A stretch of 63,777 nucleotides of DNA, filler included, from Psammoneis japonica (GCA_008632985.1; 8 parts of 8 records of this genome joined end to end with filler, not necessarily neighbours in it); one strand, 5' to 3'; positions 1 to 58,894 are shown, numbered from the whole stretch's first letter. Translations and numbers: made by a program. The notes: generated from the sequence alone by a model not told the origin.

Positions 1-578
1 AACTCAATTTCAAGTCCGCAGCAGCTGCACGGCAACGGTCAAACAGTCCCTGCATCACGGCAGACTTGCGTGCTCCTCCTCCTCTACATCCTTCGCCACC
101 CCGCACAAACCAGGAGGCACTGCTTTGACATCATGCAATGCTTCATCGGCTCGGTGCCGCACACAACAAGAAGACCCCCTCTGGGACATTGGTCAATTCA
201 AATTTTTGACGGCAGACAGGGTCGGCAGGTTGTGTTCACATCATGTTGCAGAGTTTGCTCTAACTCTTCTTCAGTTGCTGGAAAAACTGCTGCTTGCGCT
301 CAACAGGCAGCCCTCCTTCGACAACAAGGGCGTGCAAATCCGGACCCGCGGCGAGCTTTCTGCTGTGATCTCACTCGGATCCTGGAACGATTCTTGGATG
401 AACCCAGCCGAGACGTCATTTTGTTCGGTGATTTCAACGCTGATTTCCGGCATGACTCTGATTCATCAGCCACCATGGCCCAACGCTTTAATGTGTCCGA
501 TGTCATGCACCACTGTCACGAAGACCTTGATTTTTCCACATGCGTTTGAGGCTCACGAAGACTGGACTACGTTCTTGC

Positions 579-1527
579 NNNNNNNNNNNNNNNNNNNNNN
601 NNNNNNNNNNNNNNNNNNNNNNNNNNNNNNNNNNNNNNNNNNNNNNNNNNNNNNNNNNNNNNNNNNNNNNNNNNNNNNNNNNNNNNNNNNNNNNNNNNNN
701 NNNNNNNNNNNNNNNNNNNNNNNNNNNNNNNNNNNNNNNNNNNNNNNNNNNNNNNNNNNNNNNNNNNNNNNNNNNNNNNNNNNNNNNNNNNNNNNNNNNN
801 NNNNNNNNNNNNNNNNNNNNNNNNNNNNNNNNNNNNNNNNNNNNNNNNNNNNNNNNNNNNNNNNNNNNNNNNNNNNNNNNNNNNNNNNNNNNNNNNNNNN
901 NNNNNNNNNNNNNNNNNNNNNNNNNNNNNNNNNNNNNNNNNNNNNNNNNNNNNNNNNNNNNNNNNNNNNNNNNNNNNNNNNNNNNNNNNNNNNNNNNNNN
1001 NNNNNNNNNNNNNNNNNNNNNNNNNNNNNNNNNNNNNNNNNNNNNNNNNNNNNNNNNNNNNNNNNNNNNNNNNNNNNNNNNNNNNNNNNNNNNNNNNNNN
1101 NNNNNNNNNNNNNNNNNNNNNNNNNNNNNNNNNNNNNNNNNNNNNNNNNNNNNNNNNNNNNNNNNNNNNNNNNNNNNNNNNNNNNNNNNNNNNNNNNNNN
1201 NNNNNNNNNNNNNNNNNNNNNNNNNNNNNNNNNNNNNNNNNNNNNNNNNNNNNNNNNNNNNNNNNNNNNNNNNNNNNNNNNNNNNNNNNNNNNNNNNNNN
1301 NNNNNNNNNNNNNNNNNNNNNNNNNNNNNNNNNNNNNNNNNNNNNNNNNNNNNNNNNNNNNNNNNNNNNNNNNNNNNNNNNNNNNNNNNNNNNNNNNNNN
1401 NNNNNNNNNNNNNNNNNNNNNNNNNNNNNNNNNNNNNNNNNNNNNNNNNNNNNNNNNNNNNNNNNNNNNNNNNNNNNNNNNNNNNNNNNNNNNNNNNNNN
1501 NNNNNNNNNNNNNNNNNNNNNNNNNNN
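579..1527. other. Assembly gap (N run) inside the retrotransposon ORF
   Basis: Continuous run of N. Confidence 1.
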
Positions 1528-1569
1528 GATGGAGAACATGAAACTGGGCAACTGAATGAGGCGACAGCT

Positions 1570-4500
1570 TTGCCAATTCAACACCTTCGTCGCCATGCTC
1601 CTCCCGCAGTTCAGAACTCTGTCTCAGCAGAATCTCTTCTCTCGAAATTAAAGTCATGGTCTGAATCGACTTCAACGTCTGTCAAGTCAGGGTTGCACTT
1701 AGGACACTGGAAGGCATCACACGCCCCCCACTCCTTTGCCAAGGACACTGACAAAGAGGGGAATCCATCCTCCCGGAAAGAATCTCTCGACCAGATCCAA
1801 CAGACTCTCTTCAAGATTCGCCTTCACTTGATCAACTACGCTCTGAAATGGGGTCATTCTTGTGACCGATGGAAGGACATCGTCAATGTCATGATCTTTA
1901 AAGAACCTGGGAACAACAAAACACACAGATTGCGTGTGACACACATCTACGAGGCAGACTTTCAAATTGTCACAAGCGTCAAATGGCGAGAGCTAGCTCA
2001 GCATGTGGAGAACCATCGCACGTGCAATCCGGGAATCTGTGGTTGTCGGTCTTTCCTGTCAGCTCAAACGCCAGTGTTCTTAGAAAATTTGATGTTGGAA
2101 ATAACCCGAGCGTCCCGCAAGATGTTGCTGACCAGCGACGATGACTGCACCTCCTGCTGCGATCGGAGCATTCCGTCCATTGTGGGATTGTGTTCACGAA
2201 GTGACGGCATGTCTTCATCCGTGGTGGAAGTGAATGTGTCAACTCTGCACCATGCTCGACACTGGCTTCGCACACTGCTGGGTCTTGCGCAGCGCAGTCA
2301 CTCACACTCTTCTCAGCACCCTCTTTACGGAACAGGACAAGGGAGCGGCAACTCTCCTTGGCACTGGAATGCCCTGTGCAGTCGTTTGTTTGACATTTTT
2401 GATGCCAATGCGATCGGGTCCTTTTTCGAGACTCCAGATGGGAAGTTCTTCATTAGAGCGTGCAACAGAGGCTACGTCGATGACACTTCCAAACAGGTCA
2501 ACGAGTTTAGGACTGGCCCCCAACCAACAGCATTCGAATTGTCCCGCGCCTTGAAACAAGATGACCAGCTATGGTGCGATCTGCTCGACGCGGCAGGACA
2601 TGAATCAGAACTTCCAAAGTGTTCCTTTCATGCCATTGAATGGGATTTCACGGAATGCGGTGAGCCCTTTCTCTCTCCATGTCACGACGACATTGATGTG
2701 GAAATTTTTTCTGCCGACAGGTCTGCTTCTCATTCGAGTGCGCAACTGTCTGCGCACACTCCACATGAGACCCTCGGGCACTACGTTGCCCCTGTTGGTG
2801 CCCAGAAGACCCAGCTCCAGAAGTTGCAACAGAAAAGCGACACTGCTGCCCTTTTTCTTTGCTCGTGCCCTTTTGATCGGACGGAAACCTGGCGGTGTTG
2901 TCATGCCTGTTGCCTTTCCTCGATGACGCACGTGTCACCGAGTTTCAATTTTCAGGACAAAGAGCTCCAGAAAGTTCAGCAGAAGGCGATGAGAGTGACA
3001 TTTGCCAAATGTGGGTGCAACCGCAACACCAAACGACTTGTTCCATGCGGCCCCCAAGTGCTCGGTGGAGGAGGTTTTAGATCCCTTGACGCAGAGCAGG
3101 GTGCAGCCCAATTGCAGCAATTGCTGAAACATTCCCGGGGAGTCAAGAATCTGCATCTCGGAGAGGATCAACCTCACAAACTGTTTCACATTGCAATCGC
3201 ATGGATGCAGCTGAACTTGGGCACAGGTGACAGCTTCTTGTGGGACGTCGACACTCCGTTGCCACACCTTGAATCGTGTTGGTTCGCTTCAGTTTGCTCG
3301 TTTCTGCATGGAATCAAGGGCAAAGTCCATCTGACACACAATGGCATTCTGCCCCTTCAACGTGACAACGACCAATTTGTCATGGATGTTGCACTTCGAT
3401 CACAACAGTTCAGTCACAGAGAAATCCGATGGATTGATTGTTGCTGATTGTTCCTTCGTGTGCTTGCAGTCTCTGACATGACCCTGGCGGATGGCATGCA
3501 TTTGGACAAAACCAAGGCAAATGGTGACCCCTCGATTCGGAGCAGTGTGAGCACGTTGAACAACATTGAACAACACAAGCCGAACACTCAGGCCTGGTCA
3601 GTGTGGAAGAAATTCTGCAAAACCCTGTGCCATGCCTCCACAATTCGTTTGAAGGAACCACTGGGAGACTGGCCAGTTCCTCCGTCGCAGATGCGCATGC
3701 AGGCGTCAGCTTGTTGTTCTTCCTCAGAAAATCACCCATGCGTCAAGGGCCCGTTGGGGTTTGAGATCTTCTTGGTCGACGGAACGAGAGCGGTGTCCAT
3801 CAGAGAGATCAAGGAGGCACCAGCGCCAACTGATGAATCACACCCAGCAGATGTCACTACGACAGAAGACGGAAGATGGCATTTCAGCATCCCAAGAACG
3901 ACGGTGGCCCCTGCAATCGCACCGAGCACTCCAGATTCTTTTCAAGATGTGCTGAAAACACTCCCTCAATGGGAATCTCAGCTGTTTGCGGAACCAGATT
4001 TCCATGTTTTCCCCCTTCTCTTGGTTCAACACTTCGACTCTTCTGCACTTGTTGCAGGAAGTGATGGATCTGTCAACAAAGGCGCCACCTTTGGGTGGTC
4101 GATCACACTCCAAGGGGTTCCCCTCGTAGATTGTGCAGGACCAGTTTTTGGGCATGAACCATCGTCGCACCATGCAGAGGCTTGCGGCATTCTTTCCATT
4201 CTTCGTTTTATCTGCCGATGTGTTGAATGTTGCCATTCCAGATTGAACAAGACATTGGACATTCATTGTGACAACAAGTCGCTTGTGTCCTGTCTCAAGA
4301 AGCTTGCTCTCACCCTTCCCGCTCCAAATCCAGAAGACTCTTCTCACAATTCACGTGATTTTTATTTACGACACCACGGAGCCAATGCGCTGTCCTCGGA
4401 TTGGGACGTCATTAACGAGATGTTGCACATGTTTCAACAATTGCAAGATCCGGAAAATGTGTCGATCAAGTGGGTGAAGGGGCATCAAGACAAGCGCGCT

Positions 4501-5613
4501 CCTGTTGGTTCACTCCCCCCAAACGCAAGAGTGAATGTCAGAGTGGATCGACTTGCTGGCGCCTGTCAAGGTCGCTGTGATTGGGACACATCACGTGTTC
4601 TCCCGTTTCCTCACTGCCATTCTCACTTGTCACTTGCAGACGGCACCTTGACCTCTGGTTGCAAGCAACAGCTTCGAAATGCAGCCACTGCTCCCCAGCT
4701 GTTGGAGCACACAGTCGAGCGCAATCAATGGCGACGAGAGGTTGTTGACCTCGTGAACTGGGACGCCCACGCAGTTTTGATCAAGCGTCATTCCAAGCAA
4801 CACGTTGGCATGGTGAAACTCGTGCACGATCTCCTTCCTGCCAACAAGATGGCACACCGGCACAATCCGGTTCGCCCTCATCACTGCCTCAAGTGTGAGC
4901 ATCCTGTGGAAGACAGGGATCACATCCTTCGATGTCCAGAAAACGAAGCATGGCGCCGGAAGTTTCTACAAGGCCTTCGGAAACATTGCGACTGCGTCGA
5001 TGCAATGCCAACTCCACAAGACTTTCTCATTGATTCTCTTCAAGCCTGGTTTGACGAAGAGATCATTTGCACGGACGATGTCGATTGCTGCTGTCGGGAG
5101 CTGTGGCGTGCGCAATCAGATGTCAGTTGGAGACAGATTTTCAGTGGCCGCTGTTCAACTTTGTGGAACCTGATTCAGTCGGGATGTTTGCGGGATTCGA
5201 GCATCCTTCGCCAATGTGAAGCTGAAGACAAGCACCCACCAGATTGGATGGCACAGATTGGGTCATTCATCTGGAGACAATGGTGGGAACCATGGGAGGA
5301 ACACAACACATTCGTGCACGGCCACGATGCGGATTCACGCAAGTCATCCCAACGGCGAATGGCAGAAGCAGAGCTGACCGCAATGTGTGACAAACGACAA
5401 GAGCACCTTGCGAAAGATCAAGCAGCCCTTCTTGATTCAGCAGAAGAACACAAGACGTTCACAACGGTTCGAATTCAGAATTGGATTGCTGTGGTTCGTC
5501 CCCGATTAAAAGAAAGTTTGAAGGAAGCCAGGAAACTGGCGCGTCGTGGCACACGCACCATTGCCAGTTATTTCCGTTGGGCGTCTCCTCCGGGAGGCGC
5601 CGCTTCAGGCTAA
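1570..5613 (+). pseudogene. Retrotransposon ORF2 (RT-RNase H) with one in-frame stop
   Basis: ORFs 1570-3447 and 3448-5613 are in the same frame. TGA at 3445-3447 aligns with Arg in copy 3 (WIDCC*LFL vs WINCCRLYL), consistent with CGA->TGA. Only 7 Tyr in about 1346 codons. Confidence 0.85.
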
Positions 5614-7236
5614 TCGCATCCACTTCTGCCGCACTTGCAAGTCAAGTGTGCTGGAGGTGTGGGTTGGCCGGTGCCGGTGTTGCTGGGCAAAGGTGCAACA
5701 GCACTTTAAATTGGGATTGGGTTTTTTTTGTTGTCGATGGCGTTTGCATGGAAACAGTGAAAAAGCAAAACACGTCCACTGCTGAATGTCGCCAAGGGTC
5801 CGGATTCAACAAGCAGCTTCATTCAGGAGAATGACGTCTGCACAACACCAGCAGATGAATGCTTGGATGGGTCCCCCATGGCCAGTGGGGTGCGCATGGC
5901 CAAATGACGACAAAGTGGAGCTCACTTTCCCATCTGTCCACTCTGCTGGAGCAGAGCAAGTGCACTCCAGTGCAAACCCCAGAAAAGATGCAGCAAGCAG
6001 AAAGATCAGTGATGGAAATGGGAACGAGTGGTGCTGAGAATTTGGAACTTCATGCCTGAAATTTGGCACTCATGTCACAACGGAATGAGAGCTGCTGTCC
6101 ATGGTGGAAACACTTGGGAAATTCGAGAATGCACTGTTTGGCCAACACACTGACATGTGAGTGGTTCACAAGACACAACAAACAGAGTCATGGGTGGGCA
6201 AATTGATGCAGCACACAATGAGGGCATGGTGAACATTGTCGCAGAAGCATTCAGCCAACTTGCTGTGAAGAAAATTGAGCCTTTTGAAGTCCTGCAACAA
6301 TGTCCTGCTTTTAAAACAGGGCAACGACATTTCCCCCAAATTGCCAGATGCAACACATCTTGCCAACACTTTTCATGGAGGTGAGCAAGATCAAAAAGTG
6401 CTCATGTCACAAGGACAAAATTGACTTGTCTGAAGATGCTTTGAAAAAATTGGCAACAGATTGGCGCACAATGCGTGCCCACTTCACACAGGAAAAAAAG
6501 ACAGTCTCGCAACACCCGCGCAGCTGCAGTGCAAAATGTGCAAGGCAAGACACAAACAAACAATGTCGCTCTCAAAAGACATTTGGAAATTGGAGCGGCC
6601 CTGTGTGGCCCACACAAAACAGCAACAGTCATTGCCGGCGGCACAGTGCAGTCAACGTGGAGACATCATTGATGCTGTCAATGTCCGTTGAACAACTCAA
6701 CTTGTCAAATGACTCCAATGTTTGATCTCACATTTTCCACTTTTTGCACTTTGTTCTGCTTTCCTTTGCGCTTGTTCTTTGAGCACAGTGCACCAGAGCA
6801 GATGGTTGAAAGGTTCCTTTTCACTGAGTGATGTTTTGACGTGTCCCAGAGAAACAGATTGATGTTGAGCACAGGATGCCTTGCAAAGTGCAATGTGTTT
6901 TTGCCAAAAATGAGCACAGCGCATTGTGCACACACACCACAGAAGGTGAGATGGTGCTGAGCTTGTTGGCGCCATTGGGCCTTGTCATTCAGCGCACAAC
7001 ATGCGCGATCACAGCCACAACTTGTGGCAGCAACTGCGGTCTTCCCAGGGCCAGCTGGCAACAAATTGACTGTCGCAGCTGAGTTTGCATCCAGTGCTGT
7101 GAAAGCTGTTGTTGGCAAGCAAGCTGAAGCTCAAGAAGGCCTTGAGGGAACGGAGCAAAGAGGCAGAACACACGGTCAATTTGGGCTTGCCTTGAGAGAA
7201 TGTCGCAGCTGGCAACAAAGTGCAACGTCTTGCATT

Positions 7237-7348
7237 CAGCCAGCAAGCCAGTCACTCAGTCCGTGGGTTGGCTGGTCCACTGGTCGGCTGGTTGGCTGGT
7301 CGGCTGGTTGGTTGGTTGGTTGGTTGGTCGGTTGGTCAGTTGGCTGGC
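7237..7348. repeat. Degenerate tetranucleotide microsatellite (TGGT/TGGC/CGGT/CGGC/CAGT/CAGC units)
   Basis: ggttggctggtcggctggttggttgg... read directly. Confidence 0.85.
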
Positions 7349-7659
7349 AATGAAGGTTTGTCCACTTTGAGCACTTCTGAGGCTCAAAAAAGGGTCAGGG
7401 GATGCGCCCCAGCTCTGGGCGGGACCTTGCGCTGCTGAGCCATGACATCAACATTTTTTTGGATCGTGCTCTTGTGTTGTGCACGTGCATTTCTACGTGA
7501 CTTTGGCGGAGCTGTGCGCAATTTTGCAGCGCAATTGCTGGGTGATCCGCTCAACAGTTTTTGACACTTTTTTCTTCTGCGTCATTTGCAAATGCACTGA
7601 GAATGGTGCAGGGCAGGCAGACTGCCAAAAACTTTGAGTGTGGACAGGCAAAAATGCAC

Positions 7660-7765
7660 TTGAAGATGAAAATGTCCATCAATGAAATTCTTGCACTGCA
7701 GAGCTCGCACGCAGAATTCCGCGGGCCGGGTGTCACAAAGCATCCCACCCAGGACTGGAGCCCGT
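7660..7765 (+). repeat. Short dispersed repeat (core gagctcgcacgYRgaattc-gcgggcc-tgtcaca-tcccacc)
   Basis: Matches 33428-33530 and 33310-33378 on +, and 34556-34620 on -. A partial inverted terminus lies at about 7400-7430. Confidence 0.75.
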
Positions 7766-7809
7766 CAGGGACAAGGACAGTCAGGGCATGGGATGAAAGG
7801 GAACTTCAG

Positions 7810-9064
7810 CACCAACCCACCGACCCACCCACCCGCCGAATTGCCAACCCGCCGACCCGCCGACCCGCCGACCCACCGACCCGCCGACCCACCGACCCGC
7901 CCACCCGCCGACCCACCAACCTGCCGACCTGCCGACACACCGACACACCGACCCACCGACCCGCCGACCCACCAACCCGCTGACCCGCCGACCCGCTGAC
8001 CCACCGACCCGCCAACCCGCTGACCCGCCGACCCGCCGACCCACCGACCCGCCGACCCGCCGACCCGCCGACCCGCCGACCTGCCGACCCACCGACCCAC
8101 CCACCCGCCGACCCGCCGACCCGCCGACCCACCGACCCGCCGACCTGCCGACCCACCGACCTGCCGACCCACCCACCCGCCGACCCACTGACCCGCCGAC
8201 CCGCCGACCCACCGACCCACCGACCCGCCAACCCGCCAACCCACCGACCTGCCGACCCACCGACCCGCCGACCTGCCGACCTGCCGACCCACCGACCCAC
8301 CGACCCGCCGACCCGCCGACCACCGACCCGCCGACCAACTGACCTGCCAACCCGCCGACCCACCAACCCGGTGACCCGCCGACCTGCTGACCCACCGACC
8401 CACCAACCCACCGACCAACTGACCCGCCAACCCGCCGACCCACCGACCCGCCGACCTGCCGACCTGCCGACCCACCGACCCACCGACCCGCCCACCCGCC
8501 GACCCACCAACCCGCCGACCTGCTGACCCACCGACCCGCCGACCCGCCGACCTGCCGACCCGCCGACCCACCGACCCGCCGACCCGCCGACCCGCCGACC
8601 CGCCGACCTGCCGACCCGCCAACCCACCGACCTGCCGACCCGCCGACCTGCCGACCCGCTGACCCACCGACCCACCCACCCGCCGACCCACCGACCCACC
8701 GACCCACCGACCCGCTGACCCACCGACCTGCCGACCCACCGACCTGCCGACCTGCCGACCCACCCGCCGACCCGCCGACCCACCGACCCACCAACCCGCC
8801 AACCCACTGACCCGCCGACCTGCCGACCCACCGACCCGCTGACCCGCCGACCCGCCGACCCGCCGACCCACCGACCCGCCGACCTGCCGACCCACCGACC
8901 TGCTGACCCGCCGACCTGCCGCCCCACCGACCCACCGACCCACCGACCCCCGACCCGCCGACCTGCCCGACCCCCCGACCCACCAACCCGCTGACCCGCG
9001 ACCCACCGACCCACCAACCCGCCGACCTGCCGACCCACCCACCCGGGCCGACCACCGACCCGCC
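7810..9064. repeat. GC-rich 8-bp satellite (CCGACCCG and variants CCGACCCA, CCGACCTG, CTGACCCG, CCAACCCG), running to the contig end
   Basis: About 1.25 kb tandem array visible directly. Confidence 0.97.
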
Positions 9065-9164
9065 NNNNNNNNNNNNNNNNNNNNNNNNNNNNNNNNNNNN
9101 NNNNNNNNTTAATTAATTAANNNNNNNNNNNNNNNNNNNNNNNNNNNNNNNNNNNNNNNNNNNN
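9065..9164. other. Artificial contig spacer (44 N + TTAATTAATTAA + 44 N). Identical spacers at 18111-18210, 26607-26706, 34816-34915, 43001-43100, 50788-50887 and 57737-57836
   Basis: Identical 100-nt structure seven times. The 12-mer has stops in all six frames. Internal contigs decrease in length (8946, 8396, 8109, 8085, 7687, 6849 nt). Confidence 0.98.
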
Positions 9165-15214: not shown

Positions 15215-15720
15215 TCTTTGTTGGACAGTGCTTTGCCACAGTGAATTATATAATATTACGGCATAGCAATTGCGTCACTTTCCACAATTCTCAGCTGTGA
15301 TGATTGATGTTGTCGGTGGGCGGAATGCTGATGATTTGATGATGGCGGATGATGGATGCAAAGCTGAAAATGCGCGAATGAATGAAAGGCAGGCAGGGGG
15401 GGAAACAGTTGCGTTGGGCGGGTGGACAGGCGCCAACAACCCCATGCTGTTTGTCCGTCATTGCGCACACACGTGAATCTCTCCGAATGAATGAGTTCAC
15501 TTCAAGTTCATCTTGGCACTCAGTGAGTGCTGTGCAACATGCCAGTTGAGTGCATGGCCCTTGCTTTGTGGTGTGGGCTCACCTGCAGACATGACTCGAA
15601 ATCTTGGGTGTCAGCGCACATCACAAGACATTTTCCAGCATCTGCCAGTTGTTGTCAGCGCCGCGCATGTCAGCACATGCTCCCTCAAGACACAAGGGCC
15701 ATGACAGACATGTCAAGCAG

Positions 15721-41145: not shown

Positions 41146-41151
41146 AAGGAC

Positions 41152-42852: not shown

Positions 42853-43184
42853 TTGGACAAACGATGTCAGCTAAAAACTTTGTTGTTCACAATAAGTAAT
42901 GTTGACAAGTTGCAGAAATTTGCTGCAAACTTGTCCCTCTCTCAATCTGTTGCCTCTCTTGAACAGAAGAGGGGAGAAGGTAATTAGAAAACAACTAATG
43001 NNNNNNNNNNNNNNNNNNNNNNNNNNNNNNNNNNNNNNNNNNNNTTAATTAATTAANNNNNNNNNNNNNNNNNNNNNNNNNNNNNNNNNNNNNNNNNNNN
43101 AAGGGGTGTATAGGGATAGAAAAGTTGAGCAAGGAGACACGTTAGCAGAACAATTGGAAAAAACAAGTCCATAACAACACTTAC

Positions 43185-44579
43185 AACTTCATTGGTTGCA
43201 TTAAAGGCTTCACTACCCAGTGACTCCAAGACGTCATTGTATTGTTGTTTGAGCCGTGGCGTGATTGGATTGTCCTCGGTGAGCAATCCCGGGTCGGTAC
43301 GCCACGTTTTGATAAAGGCAATCCACATGCATGCCATGCTACAAATGGTAAAAAAGTGCAGCGCCGTCTTGTCCCACAACAGTCCCTGTCCGACCGAAAA
43401 GACGGGCGTAAAGACAAATGGAAACCAAAGTCCAGCGAGTAGCATGTTGCCAACGGTAATGAGAAAGGGCAATTTGGGTGCTTCATCGACATTGTCATTA
43501 TTTTGACATCCCAACCACGTTTTCCACGCATGAATCGAAAGCATGGGACGACAATTGGAGACAATGTATCGTTTCCAATAATAGGCAAACAGACTACTGC
43601 CATGAGCACGAATCGGCACAACTCGATCCATTTCGTGTTGTAACACGGATGCCACGGTGGGTTTGTTCTTTTGTAGGGCCAGATCCAACGGTGTCTTTTC
43701 GTTCTTGTCCTGGCAAAGCAACATTTCTTGTAATTGTCGAGTCGACGTGGATTCTTCCAACAAGTACCGTACGACACTTGTATTTCCCCGCAAACTCGCC
43801 AAGTGCAACGGTGTTTGACCAAACGCATCTTGTTTCAATAATAGTTCGTGTTGATTCGTTTGATGCAATAGAAATCCACAAACCTCCATACTTCCTTTGT
43901 AGCACGCCCAGTGCAGCGCTGTATCCATGGAGGAATCGACGGCATTCAAATTGGCACGTGCCTTGTAGCATAAGAACGCCACGAGATTGGCATGTCCGTA
44001 CTGTGCGGCAATCAAGAGGGGCGTACAACCGGCTTGATCCGTCAATTCCGCCTGTGCTCCGTGCTTCAACAAACACGCCACGTGGGGAATACTACCCTCG
44101 GTACATGCCCAATGCAACGGACGCATTCCCGTGTCATCCTTGGTTGGCACATTAATGATTTGTGTATTAGTAGTAGTACCATCCAGTCTCGTACAAAGAA
44201 ATTCCAAAAAGGACACATTATCCACACGCTTGGCGGCCCAATGAACGAGCGAATGTTGTTGTTGTTGATCTGGTGTGTGTTGCAAGACGGCGTTGAGTAA
44301 ATCGGCCTTTTCAAACGCACTCGCAACAACTTCAAAGGCTTGATAGGAACCCATTTTCACAAGAGTCATGAGTGTCCTAACGTGATCCTCGGTCGAACCC
44401 GATTCAATCAAATCATCAATCGATAACTGCGGCAGAGGCGGTTGTTGCGAATGGGAAGGATGAATATGATTATTGCAGCAAGTACCATCATGATGCTGAT
44501 GATTATGCTGATGATTATGATGATGATTCGTCTGTGACAATTCCAGAGTCGTGGCACCCGTCAAGCTTATTTCCTCCAT
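43185..44579 (-). CDS. Ankyrin-repeat palmitoyltransferase (AKR1/ZDHHC17-like), first exon. 3' part lost at the contig edge
   Basis: Ankyrin repeats (PLHWAC, TPLLIAAQYGH, TALHWAC, TPLHLA, TPLDLA), then two hydrophobic segments and TDPG. Donor GTAAGT at 43184. The DHHC motif itself is not in the window. Confidence 0.8.
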
Positions 44580-47299
44580 GGTGTGTATGTCGTCGTTTGT
44601 AGAAGGACGGCAGTGGTGCTGTTGTTTGCGGCGGCCATTGTCTCTCACACACAACGATAGGATCGAGCAGGCAGGCGCAGGCGACGGACGAGATTCGTCA
44701 ACGGAAATGTTGTACTGAGATACACGTAAGTACATATTCGTAAGATGTGGTATAAAACATAAAATATCGAAAAAAATAGATAAAGCTTGGTCACGACGGA
44801 TTACCCGAGAAGCGCCCACTTGACATGCTGCTCCAGCAATTGTTGCACCCCGAGACCAATCTACTCCCAAGTGCCAAGAACAGTGGCAGGCAAGGTAAGA
44901 AGGATCTGCAGAAGCTGGCGACTCCACCACCAAGTCGCACATCCCACATGTCATGCACAGAACACACCCGCTCTTTTGATTTCTTGTCTCAGGCCTGCCA
45001 CCCACTGCTGACATGATGAGTTGCAATGACAAAGTGCAAAAGTTTTGTAAGAAACATCCCACAGGACTGTGGGTTAAGACAAGCAAATGGTGGGATTGCA
45101 ATTTTTGCTCTCAAAGACAAGGTGCTGGTGTTTGCAGAGAGTTGGGGGTCAACAGAAATGGGGACAATTGCACAAGATCCTCTCGCAATGTAGAGCCCAA
45201 GGAAAAGATTGGCACCTGTTGCACAACCGCAGAGAGCCAGCCACAGCTGAGGAATTTTTTGCAGCCGGAGGAATCATTGCAGTTGGCAGCAACATTCCTG
45301 CAGGAAGAGGATCCATCACTGGAGGAATTTTTGTGGGGATTGGAGGTGAGGAGGATGGAGGCGTTGCTGCGAATGTCGTCGCCAGTGTTGTCAAGTCAAT
45401 GGAGGTTGAAGGAAGCATTGTTCATGAAGTCAGCAGGATGGCATGGGGAACTTGGCTGCTGGTTGGAGCAGCAGAGACCACTTTGTGGCTGGCCAGAGCA
45501 GAGAGGGGGAAGAATGGTTTGTTCGCCAAGGCAGTCCTTTGCTTTGCCACACACAAATTTGAGTTGAGCGGGTCACAGCAAGTGACCTGCAAGAAAAGAA
45601 TTTGCCAGTGTGGAAAAGGCTGAGCAAATGGGAAAGAAGCCCCACAACAAACAGTCGAAAGTCTTGAATCATTGTGTGCAACCGCCAACAACAGAGTCAG
45701 TGTCTGAGGCATCACTCGGAGACTCGCTCATTTTCTGCAGCCCTTGCCTCATTGTGAGGGAATCAATTGTTGTCCAAGAAGTGAGATCTTTGCTCTTTGT
45801 CAAGCTCAACTTTCATTCAGAAAGTTGAGCTGGAACAAGTTGATTGAAGCTGCTTTGCAACTGGAGAAAAGACTGGACTGGCTGAAGCCGCATTTGCTGT
45901 GCGCAGCTCACTCGTTCCACATCAGTTAACTCACTTGCAGATTCCCTGCATGATCAAAGGCAAACAGTTGAGCAACATTGCCTTGCATGACCACAGTTCC
46001 ACCAGCAAATGTCAACATGGAGGGAACAATGAACAAAAGAGCTGGAAGCCCCAAGCTTGAAATTCCCGGAACAAACTTGAGTGCCAAACAACCTGTGGCA
46101 AACCCCAGCAAGCAGGCTGCAAAGCAATTGCTGTCTTTCTGCTTTTTGATCAAACCAAGGGCAAAATGCAGATGATGGACAAGGAAAGATGGCATCTCCC
46201 AGCCCCCCAACAAGTTGATGACAAAGTCACTTTCTTGTTGTCACTCTGGATGGAACCACACAAACCCAGTTGTCTCTGCAGTCAAAGTGTTGCATTGACA
46301 ACCGGGCTCTCTGAGGCACAAAGTGGTCTCCATGTCAAACAAAAAGAAGATTCCTCTTTGCATTCAAATGACTGGCACTTCAGCAAACAACATCATTTGG
46401 CTTGTGGTTGTGGCAGGGAGAACAAGGTCCAATTCTCAAGGCACATGAACAAGGACATGAGGAATGGATTGTGCTGGCAGATCAAGGTTCTTGACTTTCA
46501 GATGTTCTTGCCATGAGAGTCAGTTGCAAAAATGATGAAGATCCAGAGGAGAATGGCTGGCCTGTCAGGACTTGTCTGATCAAAATGAATGAAAACACTG
46601 CTGAATCAAATCTTCAGCTTTGTCAGCTCATTGAGAACTGGACAACAAAACACAAAGACAACAAGCACAAGACACAAGACAGAGCAGCATGTTGCTGATG
46701 ATGACGCATTGTGTGATGTTGTGCACTCTCCGTGTGTTTCACCTGACCATTTGTGGGCTGCCAGCAGCACCATCGTAAAGTTGGTCAGAGAGGCACATGA
46801 GATGAAGACAATGCTGATGAGACATTTTGCAAAACTCACACTGATGTCGCAAAGTTGCAGCTTGCTGGTGATGAATGTCCAGACAATGCAAAAGAGGATT
46901 GTGGATGTCCTTTTCCCTGACAACACACACGACTAAAAAATAAAAAAAAAGCTCCACTCAATGAAATTGCCTGCTGAAACCATGAATCTTGAAATGATCC
47001 GTCTCTCCAAATGTCATGAAAAGGCGTTTCTGTTTTTGATTCCCTTTGTCGTGGTGCATCCTGTCCAAGTCCCATGCCAAGCTGCTTTTTTGTGAAAAAG
47101 AGATTGCTTGCCGGCAGCTTTTCAGGTGGTTCCAAGAATGTGCCTGTGTGTGACAGAGACGATGCTAGCAGTTCCACAGACGTCACAAGCTTCCTCTGTT
47201 GACATGCTTTCATGAGCCAACTGCAGCACTTGAAATTGTTGCAATCAACACATTCTACAATCTGCTGCATTTCGTAAACATCTGTTGATCATGCTTCAA

Positions 47300-49950
47300 T
47301 TCTAACAGGCGGAAAGGCACTCGGATGTCGTGTCAACGTCAATGTGCCCGGTGGGCTTGAAGACATGAACAAAGTAATGCGGAACAAGCTTGTTGTCCTT
47401 GAAGACATTGAGGATTGCAGCCTTGCACTTCTTGCCATCCTTCTTGCAGTGCACATCCTCACCCTTCTCAAATGCATCTTTCTGGATGAAACTCTTGGAG
47501 TCTCGAGTGGCAACGCCGGCCTGCTTGTCAGGTTCATTTTCCTTCTCACCAAACGAGTCACATTTTGCCGTGCTCTTGGCCTTCTTCTTGGCCTTTTCAG
47601 CATCTGCCAACTCTGCCTCTGCCTTGCCAACATCTGCAGCAGAGACGTTGATCGGCATGTCAAACTGACAGGGAGCATTTGTTGCAGAAGTTGCTCCCTG
47701 CTTGGCATCCTTCACAAGCTCAAGATGCCTCTCACATTCTGCAGCTGCATTGTCCAATTGGTCCAAATGAGTGCAGCATTGACACCTCCTCAGCCTTGCC
47801 TTCATGTGGAGAGGGTGGATCCGCAGAGCGGCCGCACATTCCTCAGAAGCCTCGAGATGCTTGCTCACAGCCACAAAACAAGCTGCGCGGTTGCACGACA
47901 ATGCCAGTGGAGTCCACCTCCAGCACTTGGGTTGCCGCCATGGAAATTGTTGACCTCCAAACCTTCCGCATCAATGGTTGTAACTTTCACACACTGCCCA
48001 CAAGCATCTTGACAGTGGCCAATCGTGTGCAGAGAATCGCCACTCTTCTTTCCAAGATGGTGCACGACAGCTATCCTGCTCACCAGGTGGCCAGGAAAAC
48101 TCTGCCCGGCATGTGTCACAATCTTGCATTTGCTGTTGACCTGTGCTTGCTTCAAGAGCCTTGATGGCAGTGGTTGCTTCCGTGCAATTCTCTTCCAGTC
48201 GCAAAACACGCAGATGCATGGGCAACATTGAATGGGAGAGGCACAACGCAACCTCCACCACACCCGCAGCATCAAGTTTCTTGGTGGAAACGCCATTGTG
48301 CAATGAAGCCCGGTCAAAACACTTGGTCGTCAACACCTTGGCAGGAGACACACCGGGAAAAGGATTCAAATCAGCCAGCGAATCCTTGAAAACACCATCC
48401 AACGCAACCTTGGCATCCGCATGTTGCTCGCAATGAAGAGCAACTTCTCGCCAACGACAAAGAGAGGCCAACAGATTCACCTTGTTGTGATGCAACTTGT
48501 CACTGCCTGACGCAATCTCAAGTGCACCCGTGACTTGATTGAGACACTCTGTTTGGTTCTTTTCATTCGAATCCGGAAAGGGACTCAGAACAGCATTGTG
48601 GAACTTTTCAATGAACTTGATGGCATCATGACACAGTTTTGCTTGACTCCTGTAAAGAACAGCATCCTGCAAATTTGGTTCAAGGAGTCTTCCATCTCCT
48701 TGTTGCTGTGGCATTGCAGCAAAATCAAACTGGCCATGTCAATTGCAAGGGCAAATGCCTTGTCGGCGTCATCCGATCGACCCATGCGTGAAACGGCCTT
48801 GCCCATTCACAAAAAAGAGCTTGGCCTTGAGCGTCGGTCCACCCTCAGTCATTGCATGCACACTCCAGACGTGCTCAAGTGCCTTTTGACAATCTTGAGC
48901 CGCAGCATGATTGGCACCAATCATGAGAATTTCTGCCGCTTGATTGGCCAAAAGCACGGCATGCATGTCATCCCCCATGCAAATTGTGGCATGCTTGGTG
49001 TACGCCGTAAGAGCTTCCATGCATTTCGAAACAATGGACAGTCCACATTTGCATTCTGTGTGTGCAGTTTGAGCCTCATCATGAAGTGATGCAATCAGAT
49101 CATTGGTTCCCATTGACGGCATTGGAGCCACAGAAGGGAACGCCTGCTGTGTTGGTGCTTGAGGAACAAACAGCTGTGGCTGAGGTTGTGATGTCGTCTG
49201 TGCCATCACTTGCGGTGAATGGAGTCATGTTGGATCACACATTGGAACTTGTGGCAAATGCTTGGCAACCCGTGGCTGCGGCAATGGGAAAAAGCCCGTT
49301 GAGGTTGGTGACAGAGTGGCAGAGACGGGTCCACCATTGCGATTGGATCGCTGGGGTGTAGAATGAGTGCTGGCAGGAGCGTTTGCAGCTGCAGTGGGTC
49401 TCATTGGCGCACCCTGGTGTTGCTGCTGCTTTGATGCAGCCGGATTCTTCTTGGACAACTTGGTGTGCTTGGCTCGTTGAATTGTCGAATCAAACATCTG
49501 ACAGCTGGACACTTGCTTTCTGAATTTTCCAGAGTCAAATTGTCAAAATCCGGATGGGGCGAGTGCCGGCAGCAGTCGGTTCGGAACTTCAGGGTGCGAC
49601 GAGCACTGTTGGGTCGCAATTGCACTTGATGTGGACTGCCAATGACACGGCCATGCGGAGGAAGATTTTGCCTGGAAACTGCTTGCAACGGCACGGAGGC
49701 AAATGTGTTTGCAGGAGGAATGGTTGTGGTGCATTCTGCACTGACATTGTTTTCCTTTCCTCCAGAATGATCTTGTTTTTGACCATTCAAAGCGTCCATG
49801 CGATGGGCCGCCGCCACCGCTGGTGCTCGAGGCATCATGGTGGATGTGGAATTGTTGTTTGCATCAGCTCCAAAGTTGTGTGTGAACTGCACGCGAGTTT
49901 CAAATTTCTGTCTGTTTGTCACAGTTCTCAGAAGTGCACTGCAGGCCATG
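47300..49950 (-). pseudogene. Hypermutated, frameshifted copy of a TPR-repeat (DNAJC7-like) host gene
   Basis: AVLLANQAA, AAAQDCQKAL, GDSLH..G.CQDACGQC, CNRAAC, ALRIHPLHMKARLRR, AAAECERHLELV. These are TPR consensus motifs with Tyr replaced by Cys/His. Confidence 0.75.
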
Positions 49951-50139
49951 ATGCAAAGCAGTGGCTGGTGTGTCTCTCACCCGATCGCAAAGCAAGAATT
50001 CCGTTGCATCAAGTTGGGTGCACTTGCATCATTGTGCAAGTGAACAATGTGCCATTTATTTGCAATTGTGGAATCCGTTCACACAATGGAAACTTCGTGC
50101 CCACCGTGCCGAGCCGGCCAAACAGCGCTCACACAATTG

Positions 50140-50710
50140 GCACAGGCGCTCGCACAGCACCGGCAATCAGCGTGCACTGGCGCTTGCATGAGCATCTTTG
50201 GCAAAGACGCTCGCACACAACAGCAAGGGATTGCACCCGACCCAAGTGTTCACAATCCCTTGACAACAGCATCGGCAATCAGCGTGTGCCGGCGCTTGCA
50301 TGGGCATCTTAGGCACAGGCGCTCGCACAGCATCGGCAATCACTGGCGGTGTGGTGAGAGAGCGAGCTCTCTGCTCTCTAGAGTCCACCAGGTTTTTTCC
50401 TCAATGGAGGTGCTAAAATCCACCTCAATTGATGCAGGCAAAATGCGTGTCATGCCAAAAACAATGTGCTGTTTTGGCAAATGACATGAGAGACGACGAT
50501 GTCAACCCCGTTGGGCAAAGTGGTCTCTGCAATGACAATGAAGCCATTTTGCAGCAGCTGCACGTGGCGGACAGCCAGCGCTGGTGCTCACATCATCAGC
50601 ACAGGTGCTTGCACAGCATCGTCAACCAGCTCGTGTGCACCGGCACACTCACATCATCAGCACAGCAGGTGCTTGCACAGCATCGGCAATCAACGTGCAC
50701 CGGCACACTT
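50140..50710. repeat. Degenerate minisatellite of about 60 bp (gcacaggYgctYgcacagcatcggcaatcagcgtgYRcYggc...)
   Basis: Units at about 50140, 50265, 50312, 50599 and 50665. Confidence 0.7.
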
Positions 50711-50888
50711 CACACCCTTCTCAGCCAACTGGGGCACATGGCATTTTGCTGTGTTTCAAGACAAACCTGTTGCGCGAGACTCTGTTTNNNNNNNNNNNNN
50801 NNNNNNNNNNNNNNNNNNNNNNNNNNNNNNNTTAATTAATTAANNNNNNNNNNNNNNNNNNNNNNNNNNNNNNNNNNNNNNNNNNNNC

Positions 50889-51842
50889 AATTCACCAAAC
50901 CCAGACGGCCCAACTATTGCTGACATTAGTCTCTATGTCTACGAGATTGCAGATCTAGATCCGGGGGAGAATACGTTTTTCATGGAGGGATTTCTCGACC
51001 TTGTTTGGTGTGACCCTCGCCTGACTTTCAACGAGACGGCCGAGAATGTAACGACCAAGTACTTTCTGGAAAAGGACGCTGAAAAGGAGCTCGAATTCAT
51101 TTGGTTTCCGGACTTGTTCTTTGTAAATGAAATCCTTCCTCGGCGGATTGAAAATGAGGAAGTCGTGGTTACTTCCGACGGAACGGTTGAGTATCGAGAA
51201 AAATTTGGGGTCAAGTTGATGACAAACTACGAAATGAAGCGATTCCCATTTGACTCTCAAGTACTGTTGGCAGAAATTGAATCCTTCGCTTGGTCGAGTG
51301 CTATTCTTGAGTTATCGGTAGAGCAAGAAATGGTGGGCTTCTCCGACGAGTTTGAAGTGCCCGAGTTTGACCTGACAGGATTAAAAGAAATGGTGGTGGA
51401 AAGAATGGAGTTACGTGACCGCCATCCCTTTTCCGAACTGGTGGTGGAGATCTATGTCAAGCGCGATCCGGCGTATTACGTGACAAAGGTCATTATTCCA
51501 TTGACACTGATTGTCTGTATCTCATTTGCAGTCTTTTGGATGGACCCGTCCAACTTGGCAGATCGAATGAGCATCTCCTTCACGGGTGTCTTGACCTCAG
51601 TGGCATATCAGTTTATCGTTTCGGAAAGCCTACCACGACACATTTACAATACCTTCTTGGACAATTTCGTTTTATTTTCCTTTGCCCTAATGGTGTTTAC
51701 AATTGTTGAAAATGTCGCCGTGAATGCACTCTATACGAGAAACAAGGTGAACGAAAGCAACAAGGTTGACTTTTATTGTCGCATCATATTTCCAACCGTT
51801 TTTGCAGTGGGCGTGGGCATCATTGCGGCTGTGCATCTCTAG
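50889..51842 (+). CDS. Cys-less (Pro-loop) pentameric ligand-gated ion channel subunit, 5' truncated
   Basis: IWFPDLFFVN (loop A), YEMKRFPFDSQ (Cys-loop equivalent without Cys), pre-M1 KRDP.YY, four TM helices, very short M3-M4 loop. The frame is open from the contig start. Confidence 0.92.
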   Translation, partial: NSPNPDGPTIADISLYVYEIADLDPGENTFFMEGFLDLVWCDPRLTFNETAENVTTKYFLEKDAEKELEFIWFPDLFFVNEILPRRIENEEVVVTSDGTVEYREKFGVKLMTNYEMKRFPFDSQVLLAEIESFAWSSAILELSVEQEMVGFSDEFEVPEFDLTGLKEMVVERMELRDRHPFSELVVEIYVKRDPAYYVTKVIIPLTLIVCISFAVFWMDPSNLADRMSISFTGVLTSVAYQFIVSESLPRHIYNTFLDNFVLFSFALMVFTIVENVAVNALYTRNKVNESNKVDFYCRIIFPTVFAVGVGIIAAVHL

Positions 51843-55998: not shown

Positions 55999-56424
55999 TG
56001 TTGTAATTGTAATTGTAGCGGCAGTTTGTTTTTGTTGTACGTACTGTAGAGCATGGCGGTGGTGGTGTTGCAGGCAGAAAATCTTTTGCTTCGTCTCCGC
56101 CCGGCTAACTTGCGCGCGTTGAATGTTTAAATTCCAATGATTGGTCCTCATATCCATAATAAATTATTAGTCGTGTCTTGCGATCAACGTACTGTACGGT
56201 AAGTGGATTTGCATAGATGCAATGTCAGTCCCGAACCTACCGTTGGTCATTTTATTCAATGATACAGATAATAAACTTGATACTAATATAGTCATGTGGG
56301 ATAGAAAATTGAAAAACTGAATATCCATGAATATGTTGATAAATAGACTTCCAATGAGAAGCTGACTTGTTCGACCCAATTCGATCTCCCCGTTGAGTTT
56401 AAACATGCTGTGCAGCACGGCAGG

Positions 56425-56548
56425 AATGAAATTCTCATGTGCATCCGCATCTCTGTCGAATGCGCACCGGTGCAACCTGCCGTTGCCCAACTTTTCCAAC
56501 ATTTCCCTGGAATGCCCGCCGCCTCCGAATGTTGCATCTGCACACTGT
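56425..56548 (-). pseudogene. rsmH: About 40-codon fragment of a bacterial-type 16S rRNA m4C methyltransferase RsmH (MraW)
   Basis: CADATFGGGGHSREMLEKLGNGRLH..AFDRDADA matches the RsmH N-terminal motif YVDxTFGxGGHS..IL......L.AFDxDxxA. Confidence 0.7.
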
Positions 56549-58894
56549 GGACACCACAGGGCTTCATGGCCAGGTGGCCCACGTGGGGACGGACCTGGCC
56601 GGCACGTGAGGGAGCATCTCTGCACCAACTCTCTCCAGCTGGAGGGCCCTCTGCTGGTGTCCAGTCCACCAAGGACCTCAATTGAGGCAAAAACCTCAAT
56701 TGAGGATGGTGCAAATTGTGTGGAATTTGACAGACCGAACGGCGATGCCGGCCAGAATTTTTTTAAGGACTGAAAAACATTTTTGCGAGGGCAGGCATTT
56801 ACATCGCTGAAATCAACACACTCTGAGACACAAACTCCACATGTGTTGTGTCTTGCGACTGCAGAGTTTTTGTGCTCGAATCACTGGGAGTTAAGCGACC
56901 ATTTGGCATCTCTGGCAGGACACCCACGTAGAACATGCGATCCTCAATTGAGGAAAAATTCCCCGGCAGACTAGACACCAGCCAGCCAAGTGGCAGGAAG
57001 GGGACACGGAAAGTCGGGGAACCCAAAAAGATGGTGGAATTCTGTCAAATGTGTGTGCTTTTTCTCACTCAAATTTCAACTGTGTGACAAAAACCTTCTG
57101 AACACACGTGCTTTTAACGCAGATTTAAAAGCTGCGTCTGAGTGCGAAAAAGCAGCATCACCAAGATTTTGTGGGCATGTTGCAGCATTTTGCTGTCATG
57201 AACCCGATGACAACACTGCACTGCTCCCACAGAATGCCTGGATGGCTTCAGCCAAGCTGTTTGAATGGCTTGAAATCGTCTGTTCCATCGCAAACAATCA
57301 TTGTCGATCGTCGCTTGGTGCAGATTTTTGATTTTTGTCATGGCAGAAGATGGGGCTTGGCACAAAAAATTGAGCATGACATCACAAGCACAAGTTCTGC
57401 ACCATGCTGCACGACAATTTTCCACCGTCTTTGCGGGATTGTGTGAAAATGGTGCTTTCGCTGCAAGCACAACTCCATTGCGAACCTGAGCTGGAGAAAA
57501 GCACAAACACAGTCTGTTGCCACCGGATGCACAGATGAGCTTTTTGACGTGTTCCAGCCGCACGTGAACCAAATCGTGCACAAAAATGACATTTGCGCGA
57601 TTTTTGCGCAGTCCCCAACTTGCAATCGAACTTTCACCACCAAAAGCACAGATTTGTGCAAATGCAAATGTTTTGCAACACTGGCAAGACTCGTGTGAGT
57701 GTTGCAACATCATTGTTGTTGTGCTGTCTGTGTTTTNNNNNNNNNNNNNNNNNNNNNNNNNNNNNNNNNNNNNNNNNNNNTTAATTAATTAANNNNNNNN
57801 NNNNNNNNNNNNNNNNNNNNNNNNNNNNNNNNNNNNTTAAACACTAACGTTTATACACTGCCCTTTCATAAGTATCAATACTCACAAAGACAAATCATAT
57901 GCTGTCTTGATAGGATGGTACACCCATAGCGTAAAATCAACGTTGAATGGACATAACAATATTTTGGTTGTGTGCACAGCGCGCCCTCGACAAAGTGTGT
58001 CTTTCACCGTCTCACAAAAACGTGGGAGTAGCGATTGGAAGAAAAACGGGTTTGCTGCAGTCCTCCTTACCGTCCTCATCATTGCATAAGCGTGTTGATC
58101 AAAGTCTACAATATTTCTCGCCTATTCCAGTCACTGTCTTTCCTCGTTCACAACACAATAACATTGAGGAGGCTTGTTGCTTGTTATTTCGCCCACCAAC
58201 TCTTCGCAGTATCCGCCTTTTCACCTTTCGGTAAGTGTGTATTGTAAAACAGCAGAGGAGTTCTACAACAGTACCGTACGTCGGATCTCTCCTAACCTTT
58301 CTTGTTGACGATTCTGGCAGAATTCTACATATAAAATAGCTAGAGACAAGAAGAATGGAGGCGTTCGATTCCTTACGATCTATGATCACGTTTGAGGAAA
58401 GCAGCACCAAGGAGCAAGAACATAGCCCACCCGAAGCTCCAACAGACCCAATGAAGGAAGAGGACTCGTCGTCTGAGAACGACACTCCAGAAAATTCACC
58501 ACGAGGGGAAAAGAAATACCTGTCTATCTCGCCCATAGTAAACCCATTCCTCCGAATCAAGACAGGATCACTGGGCAACTTGTATTACTCCAAATCCAAG
58601 ACAGTTTAAAACCTCTAGAATAACAACATTTTTGCTTTCATGATTAATGCAATGGAATCCGGTTTCACGAGAAGAGATTAGAATAAATACCGTGGTTTTT
58701 CTGCTCCCTTTTGTCCGACTGGGGTGCTTGCTTCCGACGCACGTTTTAAGATAACGACAAACAACACGGTGACTGACCTCAGGGGCGTTTTGCAGCCAGA
58801 ATATGAGCTGTTCAATGAAAATCGGCTCAACCACTTTCTCGCCAGTGGAGAGCATACTTAATTGTGTGTACAACGTCTCTCTAGACAGCAAGAA

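Follow-up and report, generated by a model that had tools for sequence, protein, structure and literature searches.

Nearly every TpA step is missing from certain stretches of the diatom DNA analyzed here, a 63,777-nucleotide (nt) window in which these stretches hold transposons, scraps of genes and a bacterial fragment. The reading that we consider probable is that this DNA underwent a near-saturating transition of A:T to G:C at the TpA step on both strands, within bounded domains, and that it did so through an enzyme acting in place, most likely by deamination of adenine. CpG has decayed more mildly in the same domains. The window comprises eight contigs of 6 to 9 kb each, with seven identical artificial spacers (44 N, TTAATTAATTAA, 44 N) between them, at positions 9065–9164, 18111–18210, 26607–26706, 34816–34915, 43001–43100, 50788–50887 and 57737–57836. 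Features cannot be read across these spacers, and the initial annotation of this DNA, which had treated positions 1 to 57736 as one region, is to be corrected in this respect.

In seven TA-poor domains with a total length of 30,636 nt, TpA occurs 120 times, against 1,910 times expected from base composition (ratio of observed to expected [O/E], 0.06), whereas 29,143 nt of neighboring genic DNA contain 1,199 TpA against 2,031 expected (O/E 0.59). The ratio lies between 0.05 and 0.12 in each domain and between 0.51 and 0.73 across six genic stretches. The TA-poor blocks are located at contig ends, and the domains and their recognizable contents are as follows (TpA as observed/expected).

1–578, plus strand: TA-poor start of contig a, the endonuclease (APE) part of a retroelement resembling a long interspersed nuclear element (LINE); Exo_endo_phos, E = 1.6e-4; TpA 4/32
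1528–7800: TA-poor domain of contig a, after a 949-N gap within the contig (579–1527); TpA 28/379
1528–5613, plus strand: hypermutated LINE-like open reading frame (ORF) that covers reverse transcriptase and RNase H and is interrupted by a single TGA at 3445–3447, recognized by its homologs and its Tyr deficit
5614–7800: TA-poor non-coding DNA behind the LINE ORF, within domain 1528–7800; no Pfam match
15265–18110: terminal TA-poor domain of contig b; TpA 10/173; CpG O/E 0.29
15725–16105 and 17706–18088: 380-nt direct repeats, 91% alike, that flank the MurE fragment
17296–17702, minus strand: fragment of an alphaproteobacterial-type MurE (residues about 92 to 224), frameshifted; Mur_ligase_M, E = 9e-16
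18211–23817: initial TA-poor domain of contig c, with its end just upstream of the MYND/Arm gene; TpA 18/363; edge 23288/23818
26707–34815: contig d, TA-poor throughout; TpA 31/500; CpG O/E 0.55
26709–27515, minus strand: hypermutated integrase core of a copia-type long terminal repeat (LTR) retrotransposon, recognized by homolog matches
34757–34815, plus strand: degenerate telomere-like array at the end of contig d, with TTGGGG, TCAGGG, CCAGGG and CTGGGG units and no TTAGGG
44900–50787: terminal TA-poor domain of contig f, with its start about 100 to 200 nt upstream of the ankyrin gene; TpA 22/373; covered by Logan contigs
45929–46240, minus strand: signal-peptide-peptidase-like gene fragment in the TA-poor domain; Peptidase_A22B, E = 1.9e-6
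47305–47970, minus strand: co-chaperone-like gene fragment with tetratricopeptide repeats (TPR) in the TA-poor domain; matches SPAG1, RPAP3 and CHIP TPR chains, E down to 1.5e-8
56401–57736: terminal TA-poor domain of contig g, upstream of the myosin gene by about 700 nt; TpA 7/86; edge 56400/56764

Hence, the near-absence of TpA with an excess of TG and CA next to normal genes, and its confinement to bounded domains of transposon, foreign and non-genic DNA, are as the initial annotation had described them. The first block it had named, 1–9064, is TpA-poor through this process at 1–578 and 1528–7800; the satellite that makes up 7801–9064 is TA-free by its own 8-nt unit, provides no evidence for the process and is left out of the argument.

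TG and CA are enriched in the domains (O/E 1.65 and 1.69, respectively, versus 1.22 for both in genic DNA), CpG is lowered (0.53 versus 0.96; ranges, 0.29 to 0.82 versus 0.78 to 1.12), and the GC content is raised from 0.472 to 0.501. Transitions preserve the pattern of purines and pyrimidines, and the fraction of pyrimidine-purine steps is unaltered (0.2458 and 0.2461 inside and outside the domains, respectively). The losses of TpA (0.0373 of dinucleotides) and CpG (0.0203) sum to 0.0576 and match the gain of TG plus CA (0.0572), so that the domains look as if the TA, and to a smaller extent the CG, of ordinary DNA had been turned into TG or CA with little other change. CpG decay amounts to about 35% of the TG-plus-CA gain (0.0203 of 0.0576). 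A mass balance of products at the level of four letters proved uninterpretable and was discarded, as the gains of CTGC and GTGC exceed the possible TpA sources and the genic baseline is unfit there.

The domains have abrupt edges. Dense runs of TpA end at 15264 and 56400, and one begins at 23818. The TpA at position 15264 is followed by the next one at 15940, that at 23288 by one at 23818, and that at 56400 by one at 56764, leaving TpA-free gaps of 364 to 676 nt, while genic DNA has one TpA per about 24 nt. The domains extend to roughly 100 to 700 nt from the starts of the neighboring genes. Stop codons in the six frames drop from 37.4 per 1,000 positions in genic DNA to 25.5 in the domains, where 22.7 are TGA, and TAA plus TAG drop from 18.5 to 2.9. 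A change of TpA to TpG or CpA never turns a sense codon into TAA, TAG or TGA and destroys TAA and TAG. The erasure of these two codons explains the many ORFs of 200 to 700 codons without family match in the domains, and an open frame in TA-poor DNA is no sign of activity.

The direction of the change can be read from the LINE-like ORF, which has homologs of 1,900 to 2,100 amino acids (aa) (E down to 1e-159). Compared with 120 homologs, it has 0.51% Tyr (homologs, 2.66 to 4.71%), 4.19% Cys (0.96 to 2.66%) and 5.65% His (2.82 to 5.54%). When it was aligned with the 60 best of the 120 homologs, 34 columns contained Tyr in at least 60% of the sequences; at these, the LINE has Cys 11 times and His 8 times, an outcome that the initial annotation had too broadly ascribed to every conserved Tyr, as well as Phe 6 times, another residue 4 times and still Tyr at 5. 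Conserved columns of other residues are much less affected, with 27 of 29 unchanged for Trp, 17 of 19 for His and 13 of 16 for Phe. In all, 178 of 524 conserved columns differ, and 127 of these differences are explicable by one nucleotide change, namely, TpA to TpG (21), TpA to CpA (20), CpG transitions (16), other A:T to G:C (3), other G:C to A:T (18) and transversions (49). Thus, A-to-G replacements are not spread evenly over the sequence contexts: at most 41 of the 44 A:T to G:C replacements fall at TpA, against 3 elsewhere. At Ile, the changes are to Val (5), Thr (4) and Met (0).

The window also contains an internal control, together with a block in an intermediate state:

39910–41169, minus strand: unmutated LINE paralogue (C-terminal 420 aa); TpA O/E 0.49
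34916–35900: partly depleted block with a copia-type Pol_BBD fragment at 35081–35686 (E = 9e-7); TpA O/E 0.27 to 0.39

The paralogue shares 231 of 419 aligned residues with positions 2902–4300 (plus strand) of the mutated LINE. Of its 13 Tyr positions, the mutated copy has Cys at 4, His at 3, Phe at 2 and other residues at 4. The paralogue's own 42 single-step changes fall into the same six categories as 4, 0, 8, 2, 7 and 21, respectively, so the transversions and the other G:C to A:T changes of the LINE resemble ordinary divergence. The single internal stop in the 1,361 codons of the LINE ORF is a TGA opposite an Arg codon of the paralogue, and the nearly intact frame is explained by the inability of TpA-to-TpG/CpA changes to create stops. 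The paralogue lies, with an open frame, in genic DNA and adjoins a 610-nt direct repeat (41151–41760 and 41880–42489) whose copies are 93% alike and are situated inside an ORF at 41455–42852.

Three other recognizable proteins, the integrase, MurE and TPR fragments, changed in the same direction. The integrase core has 1,149 homologs (best E = 1e-61), of which two of those checked (P0371 and P0411) have RVT_2 downstream. None of its 269 residues is Tyr, while the median is 4.15% in the aligned regions of 116 homologs, which were taken from 150 homologs among the matches listed and each had a match of at least 140 residues; its three conserved Tyr columns are now Cys, His and Phe. The MurE fragment, about 130 residues long, is 54 to 62% identical to bacterial MurE, with Methyloceanibacter and Hyphomicrobiales as the named matches, and both of its aligned Tyr residues have changed (DHLDYH to DHLDCH and EYF to EHF). 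The fragment could have arrived by nuclear uptake of bacterial DNA or through capture by a mobile element. The TPR fragment has His or Cys at positions with Tyr in the SPAG1, RPAP3 and CHIP chains. All five peptide motifs quoted in the initial annotation were located, SCCDR at 2152–2166 (plus strand), PCSPWQN at 27042–27062, FDWH at 26823–26834, DHLDCH at 17344–17361 and HPLHMKA at 47797–47817 (all minus strand). Together, the LINE, integrase, MurE and TPR outcomes demonstrate, in agreement with what had been proposed, a directional change of TpA to TpG or CpA, that is, of A:T to G:C on either strand.

Is the loss of TpA a trait of this family of elements? We examined a control of 80 metagenome contigs with LINE relatives (550 kb including flanks), which represents the family and is not a survey of other diatoms. 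The median TpA O/E per locus was 0.67, and the lowest 1-kb value was 0.20, without an excess of TG and CA there. No TA-poor block was present in the 80 loci, although one of the two search patterns contains Tyr and would miss mutated copies. Homologs and related loci therefore keep their Tyr and TpA, and an ancestral element already devoid of TpA is not what was found. TpA is under-represented in most genomes, and at an O/E of 0.59 the genic DNA of the window is no exception; we nevertheless give almost no credence to ordinary compositional evolution, in which the elements never had TpA or lost it by selection (against UpA in RNA, TATA or stop codons). The Tyr contents of the 120 homologs and the TpA ratios of the 80 loci contradict it, conserved Tyr residues, including those in catalytic regions, are now Cys or His, and neither dead fragments nor non-coding DNA would be subject to such selection.

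The related loci also separate the loss of TpA from CpG decay. The decay of cytosine-methylated transposons resembles the process described here in affecting the same domains and in feeding TG and CA, but CpG decay cannot remove TpA, and related elements elsewhere are CpG decayed and yet keep TpA. Two of the 80 loci (L063 and L065) have a CpG O/E of 0.20 to 0.27 (in 1-kb windows) and an excess of TG and CA, and their TpA O/E is still 0.35 to 0.39; they represent methylation-type decay without erasure of TpA in other hosts. Hence, the loss of TpA is neither a trait of the element family nor a by-product of CpG decay, and the latter had been ruled out in the initial annotation as well. A less direct link to methylation would be error-prone or biased repair of methylated cytosine in silent chromatin, be it a Pol-eta-type WA-to-WG change or a biased mismatch glycosylase, both of which the initial annotation had listed as candidates. 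The CpG depletion in the same domains makes frequent methylation damage and repair plausible there. However, Pol-eta acts at AA as well as TA, and ApA is not depleted (O/E 1.25 in the domains versus 1.13 in genic DNA), a Vsr- or MBD4-like repair has no source of mismatches, and the A:T to G:C changes outside TpA are as few as reported above. In addition, the CpG-decayed relatives retain their TpA, and the LINE has lost about 88% of its TpA while its CpG O/E is still about 0.66 (about a third gone), from which we roughly estimate that the process is several-fold faster than the decay of methylated CpG. We consider a repair by-product to be quite unlikely.

The TpA steps that survived are not a random sample. 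The 120 survivors are found in the contexts TTAA (34), CTAC (25), CTAA (21), GTAA (20), ATAA (9), CTAG (6), ATAG (3), GTAC (2), ATAC (0) and ATAT (0). Relative to the genic density, the survival of TTAA is 57% and that of ATAC and ATAT is zero. The pattern is the same in all seven domains and differs from that of genic DNA (chi-square, P = 4e-27) and from that of the 24,403 TpA of the 80 related LINE loci (P = 2e-42). In the partly depleted block, the 23 remaining TpA include no ATAT, one ATAC and no ATAG, so the fast contexts have all but gone there. A model with one parameter per flanking base fits these counts, with cumulative hazards of 2.96 for T, 1.58 for C, 1.0 for G and 0.33 for A (likelihood-ratio statistic, 138.6; 3 degrees of freedom). 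Survivors alone are ambiguous, because the 3′ neighbor of the edited A and the base two positions 5′ of it are mirror images of each other. The 21 polarized Tyr outcomes favor the 3′-neighbor model with a log10 likelihood ratio of 4.5 (13.7 Cys expected and 13 seen). Six of the 8 Tyr codons preceded by T became Cys, in line with this model, with which the Ile outcomes also agree. Thus, the converted pair is the A:T of 5′-TAY-3′ or, equivalently, the T of 5′-RTA-3′, and the order by 3′ base is T > C > G > A.

This equivalence gives room to an attack on the thymine of 5′-RTA-3′, for example, by a TET/JBP-type oxidation to 5-hydroxymethyluracil or 5-formyluracil, which would mispair with G or be misrepaired and result in T-to-C changes. 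The hydroxymethyluracil of dinoflagellates is found preferentially at TpA and TpC, and 5-formyluracil induces T-to-C mutations. Nothing in the window favors thymine over adenine, and the sole published proposal for a process of this kind is adenine deamination (10.64898/2026.01.13.699255). We regard the attack on thymine as rather unlikely.

Both strands were affected equally. The domains contain 3,178 TG and 3,215 CA, the local imbalance between the two is near binomial at scales of 100 to 1,000 nt (variance of z, 1.1 to 1.6, versus 1.5 to 3.6 in genic DNA), and the Cys and His outcomes along the LINE form 10 runs, against about 10.9 expected, and hence show no clustering in a runs test. The evenness of strands and the lack of clustering speak against a single-stranded substrate of editing, for example, cDNA or one strand during transcription. 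An ADAR- or ADAT-like enzyme might have edited the transcripts of the elements at A preceded by U, and the edited transcripts would then have been reverse transcribed and inserted. In favor of this, the affected DNA includes two retroelements, and ADAR prefers a U before the edited A (discussed in 10.64898/2026.01.13.699255). Against such RNA editing stand not only the equal change of both strands, site by site, and copies that differ by TA versus TG or CA, but also the MurE, TPR and peptidase scraps, the non-coding DNA and the telomere-like repeats, which were hit too. Moreover, the mutations of Bigelowiella natans arise in integrated single-copy DNA (10.64898/2026.01.13.699255). We conclude that RNA editing is very unlikely.

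Reads were available from one public study, as three runs of one sample (X1 to X3), and cover positions 43101–50787. A separately built assembly of the public run, which probably comes from the same sample, reproduces the sequence, in line with the check on raw reads that had been suggested. The Logan contigs differ from two TA-poor pieces at 8 of 1,291 nt (depth, 58.1) and 13 of 1,699 nt (depth, 54.8) and from a piece of the ankyrin gene at 6 of 1,756 nt (depth, 54.3); no contig spanning the domain edge at 44857–44988 was among the Logan pieces listed. Could the pattern be an artifact, either of modified bases at TpA in silent chromatin that were misread or of faulty assembly? All reads come from one study, which leaves some room for this. 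However, strand-wise misreading predicts TG-only and CA-only versions at half depth, whereas single contigs mix both at the full depth of genes, and the survivors obey a graded flank rule, with some TpA remaining. An artifact is therefore highly improbable.

The depth data also bear on what is targeted. Positions 46185–46955 have a depth of 240 to 780, so the domain is partly repeated and partly now single copy. That the process is aimed at repeats, as the initial annotation had proposed, does not follow from the data: the two TA-poor pieces have the depth of the gene, and the LINE paralogue at 39910–41169 is untouched. Nine of the 40 differences listed between copies (254 more exist) are TA versus TG or CA, and about as many are CG versus TG or CA. 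A self-BLAST of the window identified only short repeats within TA-poor DNA, with both copies already TA-free; the 380-nt repeat pair has one TG/CA discordance, which is located at a CTAA-type site.

We hypothesize that the change occurred in place, on integrated, silent and probably cytosine-methylated chromatin. This would explain the differences between copies and the range of DNA that was hit, from a bacterial fragment and scraps of host genes to non-coding DNA and a telomere-like array. An enzyme recognizing the palindromic TpA step would alter one base of the pair, and the likeliest chemistry would be the deamination of adenine to hypoxanthine, which would be read as G at the next replication. 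The elements would be disabled by missense changes (Tyr to Cys or His, Ile to Val or Thr, and Leu to Pro or Ser), without new stops.

Several points weigh against this interpretation or limit its reach. The ancestral states come from protein homologs at 35 to 62% identity, and wherever more than one ancestral codon would fit, our classifier opts for the TpA route, which makes the figure of 41 replacements an upper one; this bias is small, because the control paralogue yields few TpA-type changes. The flank rates presuppose that the mutated DNA once had the baseline TpA contexts, and CTAC is the context fitted worst by the one-flank model (25 seen and 14.3 predicted). The data fix the converted pair only and are compatible with an attack on either base; ranking adenine deamination first is a guess that we share with the authors of the B. 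natans preprint, and thymine oxidation fits equally. Action in place is argued mainly from the kinds of DNA affected, to which the one repeat discordance and the copy differences add direct evidence, and silent, methylated chromatin is suggested by CpG depletion only. Finally, the assembly probably derives from the sequenced sample, so that the reads are not an independent confirmation. With these reservations, we hold to in-place enzymatic conversion as the probable explanation.

How does this process relate to known systems? In Neurospora and other ascomycetes, repeat-induced point mutation (RIP) changes CpA to TpA, lowers the GC content and creates stops; it needs duplicated DNA and a cytosine-methyltransferase-like protein. 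As in RIP, dense dinucleotide-specific transitions wreck transposons in sharply limited tracts and spare the adjacent genes. Unlike in RIP, TpA is destroyed here, CpA and TpG are gained, the GC content goes up from 0.472 to 0.501, and new stops cannot arise; the chemistry is indeed opposite to that of RIP, as the initial annotation had pointed out. RIP acts on duplicated sequence only; the TA-poor parts here are at present either multicopy (depth, 240 to 780) or single copy (55 to 58, versus 54 for the gene), and the untouched LINE paralogue has 55% protein identity to the mutated copy.

Polynucleotide adenosine deaminases of the TadA/ADAT2 family share the A-to-G chemistry and reportedly edit DNA in amphioxus and trypanosomes. 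In tRNA, U33 always precedes A34, the natural target of these enzymes, and the equivalent on DNA would be a TpA rule. In natural A34 anticodons, A34 is followed by G, A or C, unlike the preference for T after the A observed here. We know of no TadA/ADAT2 deaminase acting on both strands of chromatin DNA.

The closest precedent comes from the chlorarachniophyte B. natans, for which Mettrop et al. describe 15 mutation-accumulation lines (bioRxiv 10.64898/2026.01.13.699255). Of 302 new mutations, 231 occurred in two integrated viral regions, and 230 of the 231 were A to G or T to C, all of these at TpA and in some lines only. The targets were integrated giant-virus and virophage DNA, the main one being single copy, and the de novo rate was about 1e-7 to 1e-6 per site per generation. 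Genes and clusters of B. natans that are poor in TpA and rich in CpA plus TpG are enriched for reverse transcriptase and DDE domains, and the authors propose adenine deamination, naming an ADAT2 homologue as a candidate (10.64898/2026.01.13.699255). The text of the preprint mentions neither diatoms nor flanking bases. Our literature search, for the TpA signature in diatoms and other algae and for adenine deaminases in genome defense, returned this preprint only and no report on diatoms. Thus, the view that the phenomenon had not been described stands for diatoms, while the same signature has been reported in B. natans (10.64898/2026.01.13.699255).

We conclude that the process is of the same kind as TpA hypermutation in B. 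natans, which is its one, barely described, precedent. Both consist almost only of A:T to G:C changes, only at TpA and resulting in TpG or CpA depending on the strand, and both affect bounded regions of foreign or mobile origin amid ordinary genome and leave a loss of TpA and a gain of CpA plus TpG as their trace. They differ in host, a stramenopile diatom as opposed to a rhizarian, and in what was seen, the end state here and new mutations in B. natans. The depletion is far deeper here (O/E 0.05 to 0.12, versus 0.45 in the nucleocytoplasmic large DNA virus region of B. natans). The targets in B. natans are viral, and those in our window comprise transposons, scraps of genes and a fragment of bacterial origin, with no viral gene identified among them. 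Unlike the text on B. natans, we describe a 3′-flank rule (TAY) and CpG decay in the same domains.

The ordinary genes of the window, mostly single long ORFs, include those for FtsH, a sulfotransferase, a MYND/Arm protein, an ankyrin protein, a myosin, a cys-loop channel and a tRNA U5-methyltransferase. Of these, the myosin has 53 to 63% identity to proteins of raphid pennate diatoms (Seminavis, Nitzschia, Bacillariaceae and Fragilariopsis), and the other best full-length match has 61% identity. These matches indicate a pennate diatom as the host, one that lacks a close sequenced relative in the searched collection and is not Bigelowiella. At 50889–51842 (plus strand), the contig start truncates the gene for the cys-loop ligand-gated ion channel homologue of this diatom (Neur_chan_LBD, E = 1.5e-20; Neur_chan_memb, E = 4.7e-13). 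Among 191 ORFs of at least 80 aa in the TA-poor blocks, a Pfam search identified Mur_ligase_M, Peptidase_A22B, Pol_BBD and few weak matches only. A match to MraW at 56302–56880 (E = 2.8e-4 over 35 residues) may be due to chance, and the peptidase fragment had no match among PDB sequences at E values of up to 1. One more feature of the window lies at the end of contig a:

7801–9064 (array, 7815–9064): (ACCCGCCG)n satellite, 157 copies, identified with Tandem Repeats Finder; CpG O/E 1.35

This satellite is CpG rich although it adjoins a CpG-depleted domain, and a short inverted relative, (GGTTGGCT)n, is located at 7266–7347. The composition of the telomere-like array at the end of contig d is the expected product of TpA erasure on TTAGGG, which we take to be the telomere unit of diatoms. 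Variant units are also usual near the telomeres of other organisms.

Targeted hypermutation is an established means of genome defense in the case of fungal RIP and the vertebrate APOBECs, both of which act on cytosine. A counterpart on the adenine or thymine side has so far been backed by one preprint on one alga. Our data indicate that the process is not confined to one species and that it reaches transposons and bacterial inserts besides viruses; it would thus shape a large share of the non-genic genome in an ecologically dominant group. New here are the near-saturation in a diatom, the reach to transposons and a bacterial insert, and the TAY flank rule. For genome annotation, the mutated elements escape profile searches, with few Pfam matches in 30 kb, and the long false ORFs trap gene callers. 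The flank rule, with TAY preferred and TTAA resistant, provides a biochemical fingerprint for testing candidate enzymes and is usable as a clock for dating insertions, and the enzyme, should it work on duplex DNA, would also interest the field of base editing. We tentatively raise the possibility, which we think doubtful at present, that diatoms and chlorarachniophytes share an old chromatin-guided defense across the stramenopiles, alveolates and Rhizaria (SAR), in which a natural, duplex-acting 5′-TAY-3′ A-to-G editor would work on silent inserts of transposon, viral and bacterial origin as a counterpart of RIP with the opposite chemistry.

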